A stretch of 38,866 nt of DNA. It comes from a virus (lineage: Duplodnaviria; Heunggongvirae; Uroviricota; Caudoviricetes). The position numbers and the translations under genes were made by a program. The notes under the pieces are model-generated. The model was not told the origin of the DNA and ran no database searches. It worked only from the letters and a program-made list of their open reading frames with translations. The DNA is taken from IMG/VR virus record IMGVR_UViG_2695420485_000017; one strand, written 5' to 3'. Shown here piece by piece: positions 2,007-10,160 of the stretch; the first letter of the stretch is position 1, and each line of letters starts with the position of its first letter.

Positions 2007-3464
2007 TTAAACAACAATTTTAAGGAAGTTTGAAGCATCCTTATAAATGGTGCCCGCGGGGGCGCCGTTTATCTCCTCAAGCGTTTTTACGTTCTTCAAA
2101 ACCACCTTGCCATCTTCCAGAAATTCAATGCATGGTGCGTCGTTGTTCATGTTTATTTTCAACGAACCAACAGCACTACCTCCGTTTCCGCTTATCCATT
2201 CAAGTGACGCAATAGGAAGTGCATTGCCGTTGTGATCTGTCCCTTGTAGCAAGATCATTCCAGTTCCTACCCCTGGTATTCTGATAGCTGCGCGACCACC
2301 ATCCTCTAAAACTACTTCCAAAATTTCTTTAGGATATTTTGTGTGCACCCCTACACGCGTCAGCGAACCACCACCAGGGACGACGGCAATACCTGGAATA
2401 AGCGATTCTGCAAAAAGCATCACTGAGTCTTTATGTGGATTGATTGCTGGCTTATCGTCATTAGTGCCGCTCCCTATCGCAATCGAACCACCATAAGCCT
2501 GAATATTCTTACCTACAGCAAAAGAGCCATCTCCTGCCGCGCGAGTTCGATATCCAATGGCCGCCGCACCAATGCCATCACTTGCAACCCCGCCGGGGTC
2601 TGTAGTGTATCCCGGTCTGGCTTGCGTAAAATAACCTGTTGTAAAAGCCGCCCTTGAAAGCGCTTCCGTTTCTTCACAGAATGCGGCAGATTTTGCGCCA
2701 AGAGCAATGACATTTTTCCCAAATGCAAAAGAGCAGTACCCTTCAGCATTTGGTGAGGTAATTTGATCTGGGTCGCCAGTAGCAGAACCAGCACCACCGG
2801 CAATAGATGCCACGCCATACGTAACGCAGTCATGCCCGAAAGTTGTGGTGTATACCGCGAATGACGCACCGTTTCTGTTAAAAGATACGGAGTAGTCGCC
2901 AATCATGGCTGGGTTTCCCCATGAGTTTTTTGATGGAAGCCCTCGCCAGTAGTTCTTCTCGTCATCTAGCGGCTCAAGATCAGAGCCACCAACTCTAAGA
3001 GATCCTTTTCCCTTATCAAATAACCACATCACCCCCTGAGTCAGTGATGATCCAGTTGGTCTTCCGTAGTTTACCTTCTGCCCGATCAGCTTCATTCCAT
3101 CGTCCTGAGCCAGCTCATTTCTCAGGGTGTTTGGATTATATTTAAGCACGTCAGAAAAATAGTGCTGCCGTACTCCTTGAGCATCATAAACAGCCATAGA
3201 ATGGCCTTGCACAGTTACGAACTTGGCAATCTGTCCGTTATATACCGGATATCCAGCAGCGTTAATGATGATTGGTTGAGAAACAGGAACGTGAGATCCA
3301 TCTTCGTTCTCCACATAAACCTGAATCTGGTTTTCAGGATTTACCGGGTCAGTGTCAATTTTACCGATATAAATTTTTCCATTGGCTACGGCTTTAAAAG
3401 AACGAGCCATAGTGAAGAGTTGCGAAGGCATCGATACGATCACATTGGCTGTAATGTCTGTCAT
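2007..3464 (-). CDS. Tailspike/tail fiber with P22 gp9-like head-binding N-domain and unrelated Gly-rich C-terminal domain
   Basis: First ~110 aa (MTDITANV...[13 protein letters not shown]...) resemble P22 tailspike N-terminus; ATG with GGAG RBS; last gene of late module. Confidence 0.85.
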
Positions 3465-3564: not shown

Positions 3565-4500
3565 TCAGTAGTTATGTACTGAAGGAGGCAATTCTTTATT
3601 CTTAAGTCTCATCCATGCGGAAAGATTCGTTGGTCCGTCTGGCTCATTAATATCAACATCTCGTGTGTGGTTTATTAAAACGTCTCTCGCCATTCCGATA
3701 ACATACGAGAATTCATGACCGTAGTCGTAGCATCTGCCGGAATAGTTCGATTGAATTTGTTTTAGCGCCGGATACAGTTCGCGGAATAATGCCTGTGAGC
3801 GGTTGGCATAATCCCATAACCATACAAGGCTGTTTGCTTCTTTTGCAGAAAGCTCGTTTGCTTTCTTCTCTTGTTTGCCGATTAACTCGCCTTCAAGCGG
3901 AACGCGAGCTGCAAGTGACAGAGCTTCGGTAAACTGCTCATCGCTGATTTCTTTGTATGAACACCCAAAATGAGATTTCAGCGACGACCACATGGTAATC
4001 ATTGCCTTCGCCTGTTTTTCTTTTGGCAGAGACTGACCGCGACTCATGACGAGTTGTTTAATGGCTTCCTGCTGTTCAGTGGTGATTTTACCCGGCAACG
4101 CCTTTTTAGCTTTGCGTGGGTTAACTACATGGCCTTTAGTCCAGTAGTCATGCAGCACGCTAAAGCATTCCTCCTGGTACTGAATCAGTTTATCGCGGAT
4201 GTCAGCTCGAACTTTCTCAGGGTTGATGCTGAACAGCCATCCATTTAACTTCTTCAAAGGAAGGCAGAGTAGCTTACGAAGCTTCCCATCAGCGGCAACC
4301 ATATTCATATGAATACAGTTGAACTTATCTAGTTGTTTCATAAGTTTTTGTTGCTGAGTACCCCAACTCATTCCAAGGTTTTCAACGATTGGCTTCATCG
4401 CAACGTATGCAACTCCGGCAGCCATGGCGGTGATAATTTGCTGACCGTTGAATGGTACGTAAGAGGTGTTCACTGCTTCTAAAATTGCTATACTATTCAT
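3565..4500 (-). CDS. ant: Antirepressor Ant (P22 immI)
   Basis: Follows arc in operon with Oarc/Omnt; N-terminus [10 protein letters not shown]... starting at ATG 4500 (ORF track extends upstream via TTG). Confidence 0.8.
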
Positions 4501-4502
4501 GT

Positions 4503-4570
4503 TGGTTTTTCTCCACGGATTTACTGACAACCGAAGCCCTGACTGTTCCCGCAGTTGGGGCTTCAACTTT
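4503..4570 (+). ncRNA. sar: Candidate sar-like antisense RNA covering ant RBS/start
   Basis: Plus-strand -10 TACTAT (4491-4496) inside ant 5' end; hairpin GAAGCCC...GGGCTTC at 4532-4562; arrangement as described for P22 sar. Confidence 0.35.
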
Positions 4571-4730
4571 ACGCGCCAATGCGCCCTTCCTTCTTAAAGC
4601 TTTCCATTACTCTCTGATAAATCTCAGAGTTAACAGACCGACCATTCTCTTCCGCCACCTTGCGTACCAAATCCAATACTTCTTTAGGCCACCGCAAATT
4701 GAACTGCGGCATTTTGCTCATTCCTTTCAT
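4569..4730 (-). CDS. arc: Arc repressor
   Basis: 53-aa product [53 protein letters not shown], near-identical to recalled P22 Arc. Confidence 0.9.
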
Positions 4731-4744
4731 GTTCACCTCACAAT

Positions 4745-4765
4745 ATAGGTCCACGGTGGACCTAT
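4745..4765. promoter_or_regulatory. Mnt operator (Omnt)
   Basis: Perfect palindrome ATAGGTCCACGGTGGACCTAT matching the known P22 Mnt operator. Confidence 0.85.
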
Positions 4766-4769
4766 TGAG

Positions 4770-4798
4770 AATATAGTAGAGTGCTTCTATCATGTCAA
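4770..4798 (-). promoter_or_regulatory. Pant promoter overlapping Arc operator
   Basis: Minus strand -35 TTGACA, 17-nt spacer, -10 TATATT; Arc operator ATGATAGAAGCACTCTACTAT (4773-4793) lies in the spacer. Confidence 0.75.
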
Positions 4799-4820
4799 TA
4801 CACTAACTTGGAGTGATGGC

Positions 4821-5072
4821 ATGGCTAGAGATGATCCGCACTTTAACTTCCGTATGCCTATGGAAGTAAGGGAGAAATTAAAATTCAGGGCGGAGGCGAA
4901 TGGGAGATCAATGAACTCCGAGTTGTTACAAATCGTCCAAGATGCTCTATCAAAACCATCGCCTGTGACTGGATATCGTGACGATGCAGAACGACTCGCT
5001 GATGAGCAGTCAGATCTTGTTAAGAAGATGGTGTTTGATACGCTGAAGGATTTGTACAAAAAAACCACCTGA
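4821..5072 (+). CDS. mnt: Mnt repressor
   Basis: 83-aa product MARDDPHFNFRMPMEVREKLKFRAEANGRS... matching recalled P22 Mnt; RBS GGAG upstream. Confidence 0.9.
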   Translation: MARDDPHFNFRMPMEVREKLKFRAEANGRSMNSELLQIVQDALSKPSPVTGYRDDAERLADEQSDLVKKMVFDTLKDLYKKTT

Positions 5073-5171
5073 CGGTGAGTTAATTTTTGCATTTACCTGG
5101 GCCATATTGACTAATTATAAAATGAGATCAATATTTAATCGCCCAATAACTGGTGTATGTTGAGGTATATC

Positions 5172-5351
5172 ATGGCGAAAAAACCAGGTGAAAACACAGG
5201 AAAAAACGGCGGAATATACCAAGAAGTTGGCCCACGCGGCGGTAAGAAAGACAATTTTGCCACCGTCAAGGACAACGAAAGGCTTCCACCAACAACAAAG
5301 CCAGGTCATGGCTGGGTATTGGATAAGCGAACTCCAGACAGCAAAAAGTAA
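5172..5351 (+). CDS. Small YjzC-like protein, function unknown
   Basis: ATG with GAGGT RBS; own candidate promoter (TTGACT) upstream and terminator downstream; sequence MAKKPGENTGKNGGIYQEVG...GHGWVL. Confidence 0.6.
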   Translation: MAKKPGENTGKNGGIYQEVGPRGGKKDNFATVKDNERLPPTTKPGHGWVLDKRTPDSKK

Positions 5352-5357
5352 TAATCA

Positions 5358-5380
5358 AGCCGGGTCACTCCGGCTTTTTG
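5358..5380 (+). terminator. Hairpin terminator between convergent accessory genes
   Basis: AGCCGG-gtcact-CCGGCT followed by TTTTT; stop codon of the minus-strand HExxH gene sits in the loop. Confidence 0.5.
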
Positions 5381-5730
5381 ATATGTCGCTCGCAGAACTC
5401 AACAAGCCTGCTCATTAAGTAGCAGTAAGTCTCGTTGGCTCTTCCTGGTTCAACATCAACACCTACCCTTGAGCAGATATCGAATGCCATGTGAGCGCAC
5501 TCATGGGCAATAGTAGATAGTTTGCCATTGAACACGCCTATCACATGCAAAACACCATTCTCGCTACTCATTGTATGAGACGCTCCGTTGGCGTCCGAGT
5601 CATGCACGTCAACGCCAAGTTTTTGATGCAGGCGTTGCCATTCTGGAAAGTCTCTACAAAACACAATTGTACCGCTCTCAAAGAGCGGTACTAGCATCTT
5701 TGGTACGTTTCCAATGTTAACTTTTTTCAT
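5365..5730 (-). CDS. Hypothetical protein with HExxH motif (putative zinc metallopeptidase-like)
   Basis: 121-aa ORF with ATG start and motif IAHECAHMAF; no transmembrane segment apparent; family not assignable from sequence alone. Confidence 0.55.
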   Translation of the reverse strand: MKKVNIGNVPKMLVPLFESGTIVFCRDFPEWQRLHQKLGVDVHDSDANGASHTMSSENGVLHVIGVFNGKLSTIAHECAHMAFDICSRVGVDVEPGRANETYCYLMSRLVEFCERHIKKPE

Positions 5731-5764
5731 GGTATCCTGCGCAAAACTAAGGAGAGTTAATTAT

Positions 5765-6250
5765 ATGAAAAAATCACTGTTAATTATCCCGCTTCTGCTG
5801 GCTGGGTGCGCAAAAGTAAGCGACTATCAGGCAAGTTGCGAGCAACGCTATCCAAAGCTTAGTGATATGGCTAATTGCCTTGATGCCAGCGTGAAGAACG
5901 ACTCACGCATGGCATCAGCACCAACACCTAAGCTGTATGTCCTTGCTGCGAAGATGCTCGGGCAAGGTGTCGATCAAGGCAAGATAAGTGACGCACAGGC
6001 AAGACTTGAGCTTCAGAATCTTTATGTTCAATTACAAAGCCAAGAACAAGCCCAACAAATAGCACAAAGCCAAGCATTCCAGCAGGCTTTATTGAATTAT
6101 CAGGCTGTAAACACAATGCAAGCGATCGAGCAAAAAGCGCGCCAGCCTGTTATAACTCAACCTTACCCAACACGCGTTGACACATATACAAACTGCAATT
6201 CAGGATTTGGAAACACCGTCACATGCAACAGTAGCAGCAACATTAGATAA
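5765..6250 (+). CDS. Predicted lipoprotein (candidate superinfection-exclusion or envelope accessory protein)
   Basis: Strong RBS AAGGAGAG; signal peptide MKKSLLIIPLLLAGC with lipobox LAG-C; Gln-rich middle region. Confidence 0.65.
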   Translation: MKKSLLIIPLLLAGCAKVSDYQASCEQRYPKLSDMANCLDASVKNDSRMASAPTPKLYVLAAKMLGQGVDQGKISDAQARLELQNLYVQLQSQEQAQQIAQSQAFQQALLNYQAVNTMQAIEQKARQPVITQPYPTRVDTYTNCNSGFGNTVTCNSSSNIR

Positions 6251-6337
6251 AGCTATTCATTCATACCGCTTAACGAGGCGACAATACCAGCTCTCGACAA
6301 GCGATTGAATTCATCGCTACCAATAGCATCGCGTGTT

Positions 6338-6415
6338 GCAGACCAACAATCTGATATGGTTAAGAAAATTGTCTTTGATACGCTCAAAGAGCTATATAAA
6401 AAAGACAGCAGCTAA
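6338..6415 (+). pseudogene. Remnant of an mnt-like 3' end
   Basis: Translates ADQQSDMVKKIVFDTLKELYKKDSS-stop, clearly related to the Mnt C-terminus (ADEQSDLVKKMVFDTLKDLYKKTT); no upstream start. Confidence 0.45.
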
Positions 6416-6432
6416 CCATCCGTGGCTTTCCG

Positions 6433-8697
6433 TTACTTCTGGTTATCATCACTGTTCATCCAGTACATGATGCCTAGCCTTGATATGGTTTTCTTATCTG
6501 ATTCTGGAAGTGAGTTGTAAAACGAGCGCCAAGCAGAAGAGCGTCTTACAGTTGTATCAACGATGCTTTCTGGTGCTTGTTTTACTGCCAGCCTTGCTGC
6601 TTTCTGGAATTCTGGTGAGCTAATTAGCTTTTCTGCAGATTCCATTGATGCAGCGCCGCCCATCGCCCTGATTTTGCTGGCGACTTTTGCCCCAATTTCT
6701 GACCCAGCAACAGCACCTACTGCACTGAACGGTCCTGACACAGTTGAACCAACCGCAGTGCCAATGCGTTGGGCATGGTTAGCAACAAATTCATTTGCCG
6801 CAGTGACGCGATTAAACCGTTTGACGAACTCGTTTAGTCTTCCTGTAGTTATCTCGTAAGATTTTGCATCTTTGATAGCCTTTGCGACCTTATATACATC
6901 GTTCAGACCTGACATAGTCTCTTTTGGTAAATGTCGGGCAAGATTGCGCATCTGCCCGTTTGCTAACATGTTTTGATACCAGTCAGCAAACCCTGCAGGA
7001 TTAAAATCAGCGCCACGTTTTCCGTTCGAAAGCATATCCCGAAGACCTGTTCCCAGTAGCTCGGTTCTTAGCTTCCTGGACGGCGTGTTTTGCATCAATT
7101 CACGAAATCCTTTGGCATCGCCTTTCGACATTGCCTGTAGTGCTGTAGTTGCTTTGCGAGAAACATCACCGTTCAGCGTTCTGCCAGTTAGATTAATCAT
7201 TTGCTCTTCCATGCTTTTTCGCATCTGAACAAGCCTCTGAGCAACTTCAAAATCACGTAATGCATTTGTCTCTGACAGCGCCGCCTTTTGATCATCGGCG
7301 AGCGAACCGTAAAGCCTCGATAAAGCAGCGCGATCAGCATCTTTATATGGTCCAGAATTCTTATGAAGTGCATCACCAACAAGTCGTCGTTGCTTATTGA
7401 GATTTGCATAAGTTAATGCGCCGTTCTTGCCTGGATTAACTGCCCGAAAGACTCTCTTTTCAATAGGGTCAAGGTTTTTCATCCCGCCAAGATCTTCTGC
7501 CACCTGTTTGAGCATTGACCTTGTTGATGGCGCATCAATTTTTGCACCTGCAGGCATCGCCTTTTCAACATTGCGATAAAGCTGGTCGCTTCGTTTCATC
7601 AGCGCAGACATTCTTCCATTGATCGTATCAATAAACTTGTCGCTCATACCAAGAGCATCTTTTGCACCGGAAACGCGATCAATTATCTCCCCCGCGCCCT
7701 GTGCTAGTTGCCTGATTGCTTCATTTTCCTGCACCCGTAGAGCAGAACCCGCACGGGACTTGATTGCTTGCTCAACTGCCTTGTATTGCTCGTTCCCGGA
7801 AAAATGTGAAGGGAGTAATGAATCAACATTAAGCCTTTCAGCAGACTCCAGAACTTCAGCCTGAGGATTGATATCTAGTTCATCAAGCGATGAAGCGAGA
7901 TTTGGCCTTTTTTGTGCTGCTACTGTGCGGACGACCTCCTCTGGGTCCCTCGTCGCAGGCGTCATTGGTACACCTTGTGCTGCTCTTGCCTCTGCGGCAT
8001 GAACCGCAGGATTTGTTGCTGCAGCGGCATCACCGGAGAATGGTGATGTTTCTGTTGGCGCAGTACCGGAGAATGGTGATGTTTCTGTTGGCGCAGTGGT
8101 CGCTCTCTGTGCAGATGTTTTATTGCCACTAATTATATTTGATGCACCACGAACACCACGGGTAACGCCATTTATCAGGCCATGCGTAGCAATGTTAAGT
8201 CCGGCATTAATAGCGGCATTTTCGGCAAAATCACCCCGTTGATTCGCCGCGTCAGCGAGAGAACCAATGACCATGTTTCCAGCTACTCCTGCTCCAGGAA
8301 CAAGATAACCGCCTATTGACTCTCCAGCTTGAGCGTAGGGGTCTGTCGGTCTGTCTACTGGGCGATAAACATCATCCAAAACCTTGGGGCCACCAAGCCC
8401 CTGGCTGATTGCATTAATCAGACTTGCGCCACCCTGCAATACGTCAAATGGTATGTTTACCAGACCACGACCAGCCTGCTCTGCAATTTGCCCTGCACTT
8501 TGACCACCTGTGAGCCAATCGCCAGCTTGTTGCATCAATGATGGTTCTTCACGTGCTGGTTCATTATTGGCCTGATTAACTGTTTGTTGCTGAACAGCCT
8601 GACCAGCAAAATACTCATCAATGGCGGTGCCAATATCTTCCGTGCTCGTACCATCAGGGAAGGTAAATGTCTTACCGTTTGCAGTTACTTTCATCAT
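6433..8697 (-). CDS. Ejection/DNA-transfer protein, P22 gp16-like
   Basis: 754-aa ORF in gp7-gp20-gp16 order; start overlaps gp20 stop (GAATGATGA); Gly/Ala-rich. Confidence 0.75.
8053..8118. repeat. Tandem 33-bp in-frame duplication inside gp16-like gene
   Basis: ccggagaatggtgatgtttctgttggcgcagt(a/g) repeated twice, encoding [11 protein letters not shown] twice. Confidence 0.7.
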
Positions 8698-10160
8698 TCC
8701 ACCGTAAATTGAATGCCTGATTTTGAGGTATATGATCCGGATTGACTCTGCTGCTGTTGGGTATTTGTCGGTTGTTGGCTATTGCTCTGTTGTTGACTAT
8801 TTGCAGCACTTGAAACCACCAAAGCATCATAAACGCGACCAGACTGACCACGTAATGAGTTATATTGGCCCTGCATTTTTCGCATTTTTGTTTCAGTAGC
8901 AGCCTTGGAATCACCAGGCTGAGGCAGGTACATTTTGGAATACTCCTGCATCTCTGGCAGAGTAATTGCTGCACCTGTTTCTGGGCGCAAAATTGCATAC
9001 AAGGCGTCTCTCGCATTTACCATATATTGCTGCTCCGCTGGTGATAGGCTTAAATTTGCAATAGTCCCATCGCCAAGAGAGCGATTTATTAATGCAACTC
9101 GCTTTGGATCAATGCTTTTACTAAGCTGATTCATTGAGTCCATTGAGTCTTTTAATCGCAAAGCAAATCCTGCCGCCTTCTTGGAACCCTCATTAGCCTT
9201 ATCTATGATGCTTTGCGCTTGTGGCAAGCTAATTGGTTTAATACCATCACCAGATATAGGTTGGTTTAGTTTTCCGGCTTCCTCGCTTCCATCGGTGTAA
9301 TACTTAGTTACCGAGCCATCAGGATTGGTTTCAACCTTAAGTAATCTCTTAGCGTTGGGATTAATTCCCGCCGCTGCCGCAAATGCCGCTGCCCCCTCTG
9401 GATCCGCCTTTAACATTTGCGCATACTGATTGTAATTCTGCATTGCGGCTGTTGGTGCATATGCTGACGTTAACGCATTTGCTCGGCTAATATCCTGTCC
9501 TCTCACCTGAAGTGCCTCGCCAGCCTGATTGCTGCGGATTGTCTCTGCCAGCCTGCCTCGGTCAATTTCACGACCAGCCATCTTGTCCTGAACATTGAAG
9601 TAATCAATCGGACCAAGCGCAGCCATCCCAAGGTGATCAACAAACTCACTAAATCCTGAAGGATTCTGCTGATACATCTGAGCAACGTTATTAGGGTCAA
9701 CACCGACACGAGTAAGTTCCTTGGCGTTGTTTTGCAGCCATGATTGCATTGCTTCTGGAGACGATGCCGCAAGACGAGCGCCAGCCGATAAGGTTCCGAT
9801 AGAATTGCGCTGGTCTTCATCAATGAATCCCATGCCTTTACGAACGGATTCAATCTGGTCTGGATATTGAGTAGCCAACTGACGCAAAGCACCGCGATCA
9901 CCAGACGCATAAGCATTAGCGTATGCCTGCTGAAATTCTTTCTGCCGCTGAGCCTGCTTTTCCTGCTGAAACACCCCCGCAATACCTGAAAGGCCTTGCA
10001 AAGCAGTCAGCCCAACATTGTTAGCGCCTGAACGCTCAATATCATTGTTCTGCCTGATAAGCTGAAGCGTATTGCCGATGTCATTTACTCTCGGAGCGTT
10101 TGAGTTGATGCCGCCGATACCAGCCAACAATCCGCCATTTGCCCCCTGCCAAGTAGCCAT
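8694..10160 (-). CDS. Ejection/DNA-transfer protein, P22 gp20-like
   Basis: 488-aa ORF, position between gp7-like and gp16-like genes; ATG start. Confidence 0.75.

Follow-up and report, generated by a model that had tools for sequence, protein, structure and literature searches.

A predicted lipoprotein gene at the sieA position in the ant moron of a P22-like Escherichia coli prophage

Results

A lipoprotein gene takes the place of sieA behind a conserved linker

We analyzed a stretch of 38,866 nucleotides (nt) from the IMG/VR record IMGVR_UViG_2695420485_000017, here called the window, which holds a P22-like (Lederbergvirus) prophage of Escherichia coli with the late operon on the minus strand. 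The block under study (positions 5100–6415, genes on both strands) lies between mnt and the gene for the gp16-type ejection protein and makes up that half of the ant moron (immI region) of this integrated prophage which is nearer to gp16. It carries a gene for a predicted lipoprotein of 161 amino acids (aa) at 5765–6250 on the plus strand, which belongs to the family phrog_6067. An initial annotation made from the sequence had placed the block at the sieA position of phage P22, and the lipoprotein gene was indeed located exactly there, behind the same promoter and ribosome-binding region. An overall explanation that comprises a modular ant moron, the swap of sieA for the lipoprotein gene, neighboring gene fossils and a protection of the lysogen at its envelope is, on balance, somewhat probable.

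Positions 4500–5758 of the window matched P22 in a single uninterrupted stretch with 97.5% identity. This stretch includes mnt, a gene for a small protein of 59 aa (orf59a), a terminator, a gene for a protein with an HExxH motif (hkcC) and the putative sieA promoter. The P22 record carries annotations for orf59a, the mnt terminator and the sieA promoter in the matching stretch, and the open reading frame (ORF) with the HExxH motif is intact there, which contradicts the initial view that the block is absent from P22. Only positions 5759–6432, comprising the lipoprotein gene and a 182 nt spacer, had no match in P22. The PsieA equivalent, a putative promoter at 5700–5730 (plus strand), was identical in 31 of 31 nt to the promoter annotated in BK000583. 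It is followed by a conserved linker with a Shine-Dalgarno sequence (GGTATCCTGCGCAAAACTAAGGAG, 5733–5757, plus strand), which represents the 5' joint of the cargo exchange. The homology to P22 ended directly after AAGGAG, the Shine-Dalgarno sequence of sieA. At this breakpoint, ...GCGCAAAACTAAGGAG was followed by AGTTAATTATATG in the window and ...GCACAAAACTAAGGAG was followed by GTTGGTGTGTCTGATTCTATG in P22. Since the homology breaks off after the Shine-Dalgarno sequence and PsieA is identical, the lipoprotein gene is an exact replacement of the sieA coding sequence.

The linker of about 25 nt (GGTATCCTGCNCAAAACTAAGGAG) was kept in front of varied occupants of this slot, even when mnt or another gene instead of hkcC was located upstream. 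ORFs extracted from 71 P22-like loci (linker loci L001, L002, L005, L013, L014, L021 and L032–L111) revealed 11 unrelated cargo families behind the linker. The lipoprotein was present at 23 of the 71 linker loci, a 129 aa secreted protein at 11, P22-type SieA at 10, a 109 aa membrane-anchored coiled-coil protein, which is probably the HK620 hkcB family, at seven, and a 75 aa protein with two membrane helices also at seven; the remainder was occupied by six rarer families. By inspection, all 11 families have an N-terminal signal peptide, a lipobox or a membrane segment. When the remaining cargo families were scanned with Pfam, there was one credible match (YobH-like) and one sub-threshold match (DivIC-like). 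Among the cargo that replaces sieA in its slot, the widespread lipoprotein family is the most frequent, and its recognition as such is new here.

The lipoprotein matched phrog_6067 over its full length (1e-109). It has a signal peptide with the lipobox LLAGC, and the N-terminus reads MKKSLLIIPLLLAGC followed by AKV. Among 22 diverse members of the family G14 and C15 were invariant, L12 was nearly so, and Asp was never found at position +2. In E. coli, lipoproteins are sorted to the outer membrane when residue +2 is not Asp. Both features of an outer-membrane lipoprotein, the lipobox pattern L-x-[GA]-C and a residue other than Asp at +2, were present. Because no family member has Asp at +2, a location in the outer membrane, either facing the periplasm or at the surface, is predicted. 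Four cysteines are conserved, namely Cys25, Cys38 and a C-terminal pair. A hydropathy scan showed no membrane helices in the lipoprotein besides the signal peptide. In the AlphaFold model (predicted local distance difference test, pLDDT, of 63) residues 18–105 form a helical core (about 77–87), and the model also has a long Gln-rich helix and a disordered tail.

Homologs of the lipoprotein formed 97 clusters with lengths of about 153–162 aa, from E. coli, Citrobacter, Serratia, Klebsiella aerogenes, Yersinia, Pectobacterium, Morganella, Xenorhabdus, Providencia and Tatumella. The gene was detected in 186 of 5426 complete E. coli genomes (about 3%) and is common in pathogenic E. coli, e.g., LF82, O104:H4 and B7A. 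At all loci long enough to judge (17/17) it was located between the tailspike gene and gp16/gp20, on the strand opposite to the late operon; the hosts of this arrangement were phages or prophages of E. coli, Salmonella, Serratia, Yersinia, Morganella, Proteus, Providencia and Tatumella. The lipoprotein gene lies 17 nt after mnt in the representatives from Serratia, Yersinia and Proteus. The ratio of nonsynonymous to synonymous substitution rates (dN/dS) against five copies from E. coli or Salmonella phages was 0.03–0.06, indicating purifying selection.

Two other assignments of the lipoprotein were tried and rejected. BLASTP against P22 SieA (type A) gave no alignment at E ≤ 100 and the SieA motif FxRYPxEAxxFNK was absent, which, together with the lack of multi-pass membrane segments, ruled out a homolog of this SieA. 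An inhibitor of the lytic-transglycosylase domain of gp16 was dropped because Pfam did not find the SLT domain in the gp16 of the window and in six other alleles, five of them from lipoprotein loci. Among the gp16 alleles examined with Pfam, only the Serratia alleles had an SLT domain.

The genes of the block exchange independently

The small gene, the convergent HExxH gene, the lipoprotein gene and an mnt 3' fragment, as described in the initial annotation, were all present at about the positions it had given. A census of 80 IMG/VR P22-like loci with near-identical hkcC was evaluated. The lipoprotein was found in 18 of these loci and P22-type sieA in 13, and for the other 49 either a different cargo or no cargo was detected. 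No locus had both the lipoprotein and P22-type sieA (0/80), a count that covers type A SieA. The same hkcC was thus located beside sieA, the lipoprotein gene or other ORFs. In P22, orf59a and hkcC adjoin sieA instead of the lipoprotein gene. Conversely, the lipoprotein gene was present without hkcC or orf59a in the phages Gally, VSe13 and Brookers and in prophages of Serratia, Yersinia and Morganella. Seventy of the 80 loci had orf59a. Ten loci had an unrelated 74 aa ORF with two predicted membrane helices at the orf59a position (e.g., L036, L034, L080 and L097 4380–4604, minus strand).

Relatives of hkcC with 43–63% identity were followed by a convergent 59 aa gene at a distance of 4–30 nt in five of five contexts examined. 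These were three siphovirus tail operons, one P22-like contig and one short contig (L023 5001–5556; L024 5001–5563; L026 5001–5526; L028 544–1131; L031 598–1189). The siphovirus pairs lie between the tail tube gene and the tape-measure gene and are not accompanied by the lipoprotein gene. In three pairs that were aligned, orf59a was 76–81% identical and hkcC only 57–63%. Since the pair was present in all five divergent contexts, orf59a and hkcC constitute a frequent two-gene module. An obligate pairing was ruled out by the ten loci with the 74 aa ORF and by phage L and mEp021 relatives, which do not have orf59a. As judged from these sequence comparisons, the interval consists of independently exchanging modules, with orf59a and hkcC as resident P22/HK620 genes.

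Two gene fossils are joined next to the lipoprotein gene

The spacer between the lipoprotein gene and gp16 (6251–6432) holds two fossils. One of them, which had not been noticed in the initial annotation, consists of the last 27 codons and the stop codon of another gp16 allele, which is of the Bas106 / E. coli 1344_LBHALD type (6253–6339, minus strand). Window positions 6233–6339 showed 99.1% DNA identity to the phages Bas106, Dewey, Huey and Louie, namely to the gp16 allele annotated there as "DNA transfer protein" at its 3' end. The encoded ...RDAIGSDEFNRLSRAGIVASLSGMNE, which is followed by the stop codon, is identical to the C-terminus of the protein of these four phages.

The other fossil is a truncated Sf101-type mnt 3' end with the last 24 codons and the stop codon (6338–6415, plus strand; Pfam Repressor_Mnt, E = 5e-13). 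It comprises only the C-terminal Repressor_Mnt domain, without the N-terminal ribbon-helix-helix (Arc) domain for DNA binding and without its own start codon, and by this domain content it is a pseudogene fragment. In the genomes of E. coli WCHEC050613 and CFSAN064035, this fragment likewise carries the RefSeq label of a pseudogene, an incomplete member of the Arc family. Window positions 6331–6440 had 95.5% DNA identity to phage Sf101, and the last 23 residues of the fossil were identical. The match to Sf101 continued unbroken from the fossil into gp16, from position 6331 to at least 7400, and the 3' part of the gp16 gene in the window is of the Sf101 type. Identity of the fossil to the 3' end of the mnt gene of the window was 74% (49/66 nt, 6338–6403 versus 4998–5063), in agreement with the roughly 75% reported initially. 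The interpretation of the fragment as a scar of recombination was supported, but not that as a decayed second copy of mnt, since it is a truncated Sf101-type allele.

The three-way alignment with both parents located the recombination joint in a microhomology of 14 nt at 6326–6339 (GCATCGCGTGTTGC in the window), in which the parents agree at 11 of 14 bases (GCATCGCGTATTGC versus GCAGAGCGTATGGC). One parental arrangement is represented by E. coli 1344_LBHALD (L021), in which mnt and the lipoprotein gene are followed after 2 nt by an intact Bas106-type gp16. The other is that of Sf101, with a gene for a 97 aa Mnt-like protein separated by 17 nt from the gp16 stop codon. From this alignment the joint is illegitimate and connects the gp16 3' end of a lipoprotein phage to the mnt 3' part of an Sf101-like phage. 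Recombination between two mnt copies, which had been suggested as the way of insertion of the block, does not fit this right-hand joint between gp16 and mnt. The identical joint was found in E. coli WCHEC050613, in E. coli CFSAN064035 and in one IMG/VR contig (L002, L022 and L037). The prophage of CFSAN064035 also has a gp16 pseudogene fragment of the lytic transglycosylase type with missing N-terminus between the tailspike gene and the lipoprotein gene (L022 2617–3516). Its occurrence in addition to the same mnt fossil shows that illegitimate joins have taken place repeatedly at this locus.

orf59a and hkcC are resident genes of P22-like phages

The orf59a homolog (5172–5351, plus strand) starts with the ATG at 5172, not 5173, and encodes a basic, hydrophilic protein of 59 aa with 98% aa identity to the annotated P22 orf59a. 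It matched phrog_3202 (7e-31). Against the Pfam family PF14168 (YjzC) it scored 19.4 bits (E = 1.3e-3, profile positions 8–54 of 55) with a gathering cut-off of 25 bits, so that the label "YjzC-like" is plausible but unproven. No function for YjzC was found in the literature, which likewise yielded no work on what the lipoprotein, orf59a or hkcC do. A +1-frame ORF overlapping orf59a (5188–5418, plus strand) has database entries, one of them from Salmonella phage 22 under the name "tubulin/FtsZ family GTPase domain protein"; this entry is probably a mis-call.

A hairpin at 5357–5376 between the convergent genes orf59a and hkcC is a terminator-like site on both strands. It corresponds to the mnt terminator in the P22 annotation and to the bidirectional terminator tORF59A in the HK620 annotation, and mnt and orf59a, located on the strand that is expressed in the prophage, have their common end at this hairpin. 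The initial annotation had attributed a promoter and a terminator of its own to the small gene. The hairpin does exist but is annotated as the terminator of mnt in P22. For the promoter, there was only a match to 9 of 12 consensus positions at 5107–5135, and the region had four promoter-like sites versus 3.3 expected from shuffled sequences, so that this part of the claim was not supported.

The hkcC homolog (5365–5730, minus strand, i.e., the late-operon strand) is convergent with orf59a and encodes a protein of 121 aa with the HExxH motif HECAH. The protein has 99.2% aa identity to HK620 hkcC and also to an unannotated P22 ORF. The gene is intact in P22 (L001 4366–4731), and the P22 references BK000583 and NC_002371 have no coding sequence feature for it. 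Its first codons overlap the annotated sieA promoter. It matched phrog_1365 (1.7e-39), and the hkcC profile matched 554 clusters (50% identity clusters). H76, E77 and E100 were invariant and H80 was at least 90% conserved in 89 relatives with 23–44% identity. Thus the HExxH motif and a Glu 20 residues downstream, as typical for zincins, are conserved across the hkcC family. The dN/dS value versus P22 was 0.036. The structural model (pLDDT 74) comprises strands, the HExxH helix and a second helix with E100. A broad hkcC profile matched myroilysin weakly (E = 2e-3), and the neighbors of hkcC among the viral models of BFVD include the labels SprT-like, PolyVal metallopeptidase and Metalloprotease. 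hkcC itself had no Pfam match, only one of the 89 relatives matched SprT-like, and Foldseek of the hkcC model against the PDB gave no match at E ≤ 1e-3. We consider hkcC a putative small zincin-like metallopeptidase. It has the HExxH motif with downstream Glu in common with the small SprT-like/PolyVal zincins of phages, and its predicted fold (strands, active-site helix and Glu helix) matches viral models with such labels, but it differs from these zincins as a stand-alone protein of 121 aa with no Pfam match of its own and no significant fold match in the PDB.

No promoter-like site was detected on the hkcC strand between gp16 and the hkcC start codon. The simplest assumption is late expression of hkcC, since the gene has the sense of late transcription both here and in the siphovirus tail operons. 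hkcC would then probably be a late-expressed metallopeptidase, with orf59a as its frequent partner. A strong terminator-like hairpin with a 10 bp stem is located at 5669–5691 (minus strand) inside the 5' part of hkcC on the hkcC strand, and two stem positions differ in P22. In phage L, ST64T, epsilon34 and mEp phages, the lysis cassette is directly followed by genes for more distant hkcC-like zincins (35–40% identity) in the sense of late transcription, for example phage L orf129 (L112 2001–2390) and mEp021 gp49 (L113 2477–3061). Some P22-like phages have both hkcC and such a distant copy.

Setting of the block within the prophage

The tailspike end of the prophage lies at the junction with dacD. 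As positions 1–1805 of the window represent the dacD region of E. coli, the element is an integrated prophage. The tailspike gene (2007–3464, minus strand) is followed by ant (3565–4566, minus strand) and arc (about 4569–4730, minus strand). The sar antisense RNA, located between arc and ant (4501–4568, plus strand), matched Rfam RF00262 with 95.6 bits. The mnt gene (4821–5072, plus strand) encodes a full-length Mnt repressor of the P22 type with 83 aa (Pfam Arc, E = 4.6e-30; Repressor_Mnt, E = 1.2e-17) and 97.6% aa identity to P22 Mnt. In RefSeq phage records mnt or its Sf101 homolog is labeled "partition protein ATPase". On the other side of the block the gp16-type ejection protein of 754 aa (6433–8697, minus strand; phrog_770 and phrog_21143) and gp20 (8694–10160, minus strand) are encoded. 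From the gp16 side the order is therefore gp16, slot, hkcC, orf59a, mnt, arc, sar, ant and tailspike.

The interval between genes 16 and 9 of P22-like phages is known as the "ant moron" or immI region and was described as a hypervariable, independently expressed insertion with "ten types in sixteen genomes" (PMC2629481). The layout of the window and the variability across loci agree with this definition of the ant moron. That the interval from gp16 to the tailspike gene is variable and harbors sieA, as the initial annotation held, was confirmed by the literature (PMC2629481, PMC10883804) and by the locus census.

Discussion

An envelope protein of the lysogen as possible exclusion factor

The mnt gene in the immI region of P22 is expressed in lysogens. 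In the lysogen, the lipoprotein gene of the window would be expressed from the sieA promoter, whereas the mnt promoter would serve those relatives in which it lies 17 nt after mnt; the identity of PsieA and the co-transcription with mnt in relatives suggest such an expression. After lipidation at Cys15 the protein would be sorted to the periplasmic face of the outer membrane, where disulfides may stabilize it. It may protect the lysogen at its envelope, most likely by blocking a step in the DNA delivery of P22-like phages that comes after their adsorption, for example the assembly of the needle or of the ejection-protein conduit across the outer membrane and the periplasm. It would then be a non-homologous functional alternative to the inner-membrane protein SieA, and the conserved linker would mark a slot in which at least 11 unrelated envelope proteins replace one another, each as a different answer to one problem. 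The argument for an anti-phage role is built on position, since SieA has an exclusion function, the lipoprotein does not co-occur with P22-type sieA, and the slot abuts the genes for ejection proteins. SieA at this locus was shown to be sufficient for exclusion and acts on gp16/gp20 (PMC10883804). We regard the lipoprotein as a plausible exclusion factor. An anti-phage role of some kind is a real possibility, although somewhat short of an even chance. A block of P22-like DNA delivery from the outer membrane or periplasm, at the level of conduit assembly, which would establish a new class of superinfection-exclusion proteins, is a tentative proposal and taken by itself rather unlikely.

Several observations weigh against an exclusion function. 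No experiment or homology was found that ties the lipoprotein to phage exclusion. The lipoprotein had no match in Pfam and PADLOC, and NCBIfam gave only a sub-threshold GspK match in the Gln-rich helix; the defence models of PADLOC-DB had no match at E ≤ 0.1 for either hkcC or the lipoprotein. Sequence and fold searches against the PDB revealed nothing significant, and the model itself is only moderately confident, with a disordered C-terminal third. Purifying selection and little variation in the helical core are not the signature of an arms race. The mutual exclusion with sieA applies to P22-type (type A) SieA. The argument for expression from PsieA is one of sequence identity, and PsieA itself is called "putative" in the literature. 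Finally, the slot of one relative (L031) is taken by a secretion-system immunity gene of the Rap1a/Tai type, and it follows that the slot can carry non-phage functions and that its cargo need not be anti-phage.

This last observation also fits an alternative that we consider unlikely, namely that the lipoprotein is a lysogenic-conversion factor unrelated to phages, which would confer serum or complement resistance like lambda Bor, protection from peptidoglycan-targeting effectors like Rap1a/Tai, or tolerance to envelope stress. Besides the gene in the slot of L031, another Rap1a/Tai gene is located just downstream of mnt, near the slot, in E. coli WCHEC050613. The strong conservation of the lipoprotein family (dN/dS 0.03–0.06), its frequency in pathogenic E. 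coli and the lack of a matching defence model in PADLOC would also suit a conversion factor. However, the lipoprotein has no similarity to Bor, Rap1a or any Pfam family, its gene always adjoins the ejection-protein genes in convergent orientation, and the one cargo of the slot that has been characterized acts in exclusion (PMC10883804). The proximity to the ejection-protein genes, which suggests a tie to that machinery, also argues against the view that the lipoprotein masks an outer-membrane receptor of unrelated phages, as T5 Llp and Cor of phi80/HK022 do for FhuA, rather than interfering with P22-like delivery. Llp and Cor are outer-membrane receptor-masking lipoproteins with disulfides, and the predicted features of our lipoprotein and its presumed expression from a prophage slot resemble theirs, but it is much larger than Llp or Cor and no sequence or fold similarity to known proteins was found. 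We consider receptor masking distinctly unlikely.

Very improbable, in turn, is the initial proposal that orf59a, the HExxH gene and the lipoprotein gene form one exclusion or defence cassette which was imported via recombination between mnt copies. The three genes do occur together in the window, in E. coli LR-60 and in the 18 census loci, and the flanking mnt 3' ends are 74% identical. The comparative data already contradict such a cassette. orf59a and hkcC are resident in P22 and HK620, adjoin sieA instead of the lipoprotein gene in P22, exchange independently of the slot cargo and are present as a pair without the lipoprotein gene in siphovirus tail operons. The lipoprotein gene is found without these two genes in Gally, VSe13, Brookers and the prophages of Serratia, Yersinia and Morganella, and the right-hand joint connects gp16 to mnt instead of mnt to mnt.

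Of the products of this locus, to our knowledge, only P22 SieA has been studied. If the lipoprotein indeed acts as exclusion factor, it would open a second, independent way to study the passage of short-tailed phages across the envelope. The at least 11 envelope-targeted cargo genes fed by the linker are candidates for factors of exclusion or conversion. Should the lipoprotein lack a phage phenotype, what remains is a tidy example of mosaic recombination in a known hypervariable region.

Comparison with known systems

The anatomy described here is real, but it lies within a locus already known as hypervariable and will not surprise a specialist. Like the ant moron/immI region described by Villafane et al. 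2008 (PMC2629481), the interval in the window holds mnt, arc, the sar RNA, ant, orf59a and hkcC. That this region is highly variable and contains truncated remnants of mnt and ant was already evident from the HK620 annotation. In contrast to these descriptions, the lipoprotein gene replaces sieA or hkcB in the window, and a gp16 3' fossil is joined to an Sf101-type mnt fossil. New are the precise swap of sieA for the lipoprotein gene and the double fossil, as well as the linker that feeds many envelope-targeted cargo genes.

With P22 SieA (types A to C; Leavitt et al. 2024, PMC10883804) the lipoprotein shares the slot between genes 16 and 9, the convergent orientation to gene 16 and, upstream, a promoter and ribosome-binding linker that are identical or nearly so. 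The two are similar in size (164 aa for SieA and 161 aa for the lipoprotein) and are both envelope proteins of P22-like prophages. They differ in that there is no sequence similarity, the conserved SieA motif being absent from the lipoprotein, and SieA is a multi-pass inner-membrane protein with several segments by hydropathy, while the lipoprotein has only its signal peptide with the lipobox and a predicted anchor in the outer membrane.

T5 Llp, Cor of phi80/HK022 and Ltp of Streptococcus phage TP-J34 (PMC3952083) are also phage-encoded lipoproteins at the cell surface or in the periplasm, and Cor and Ltp are expressed from the prophage. Homology to these proteins is not detectable, and the lipoprotein differs from them in size and, according to its model, in architecture, with one disulfide in the helical core, a long helix rich in Gln and a tail with a Cys loop. 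Nevertheless, Llp, Cor and Ltp (PMC3952083) provide a known precedent for a lipoprotein as exclusion factor.

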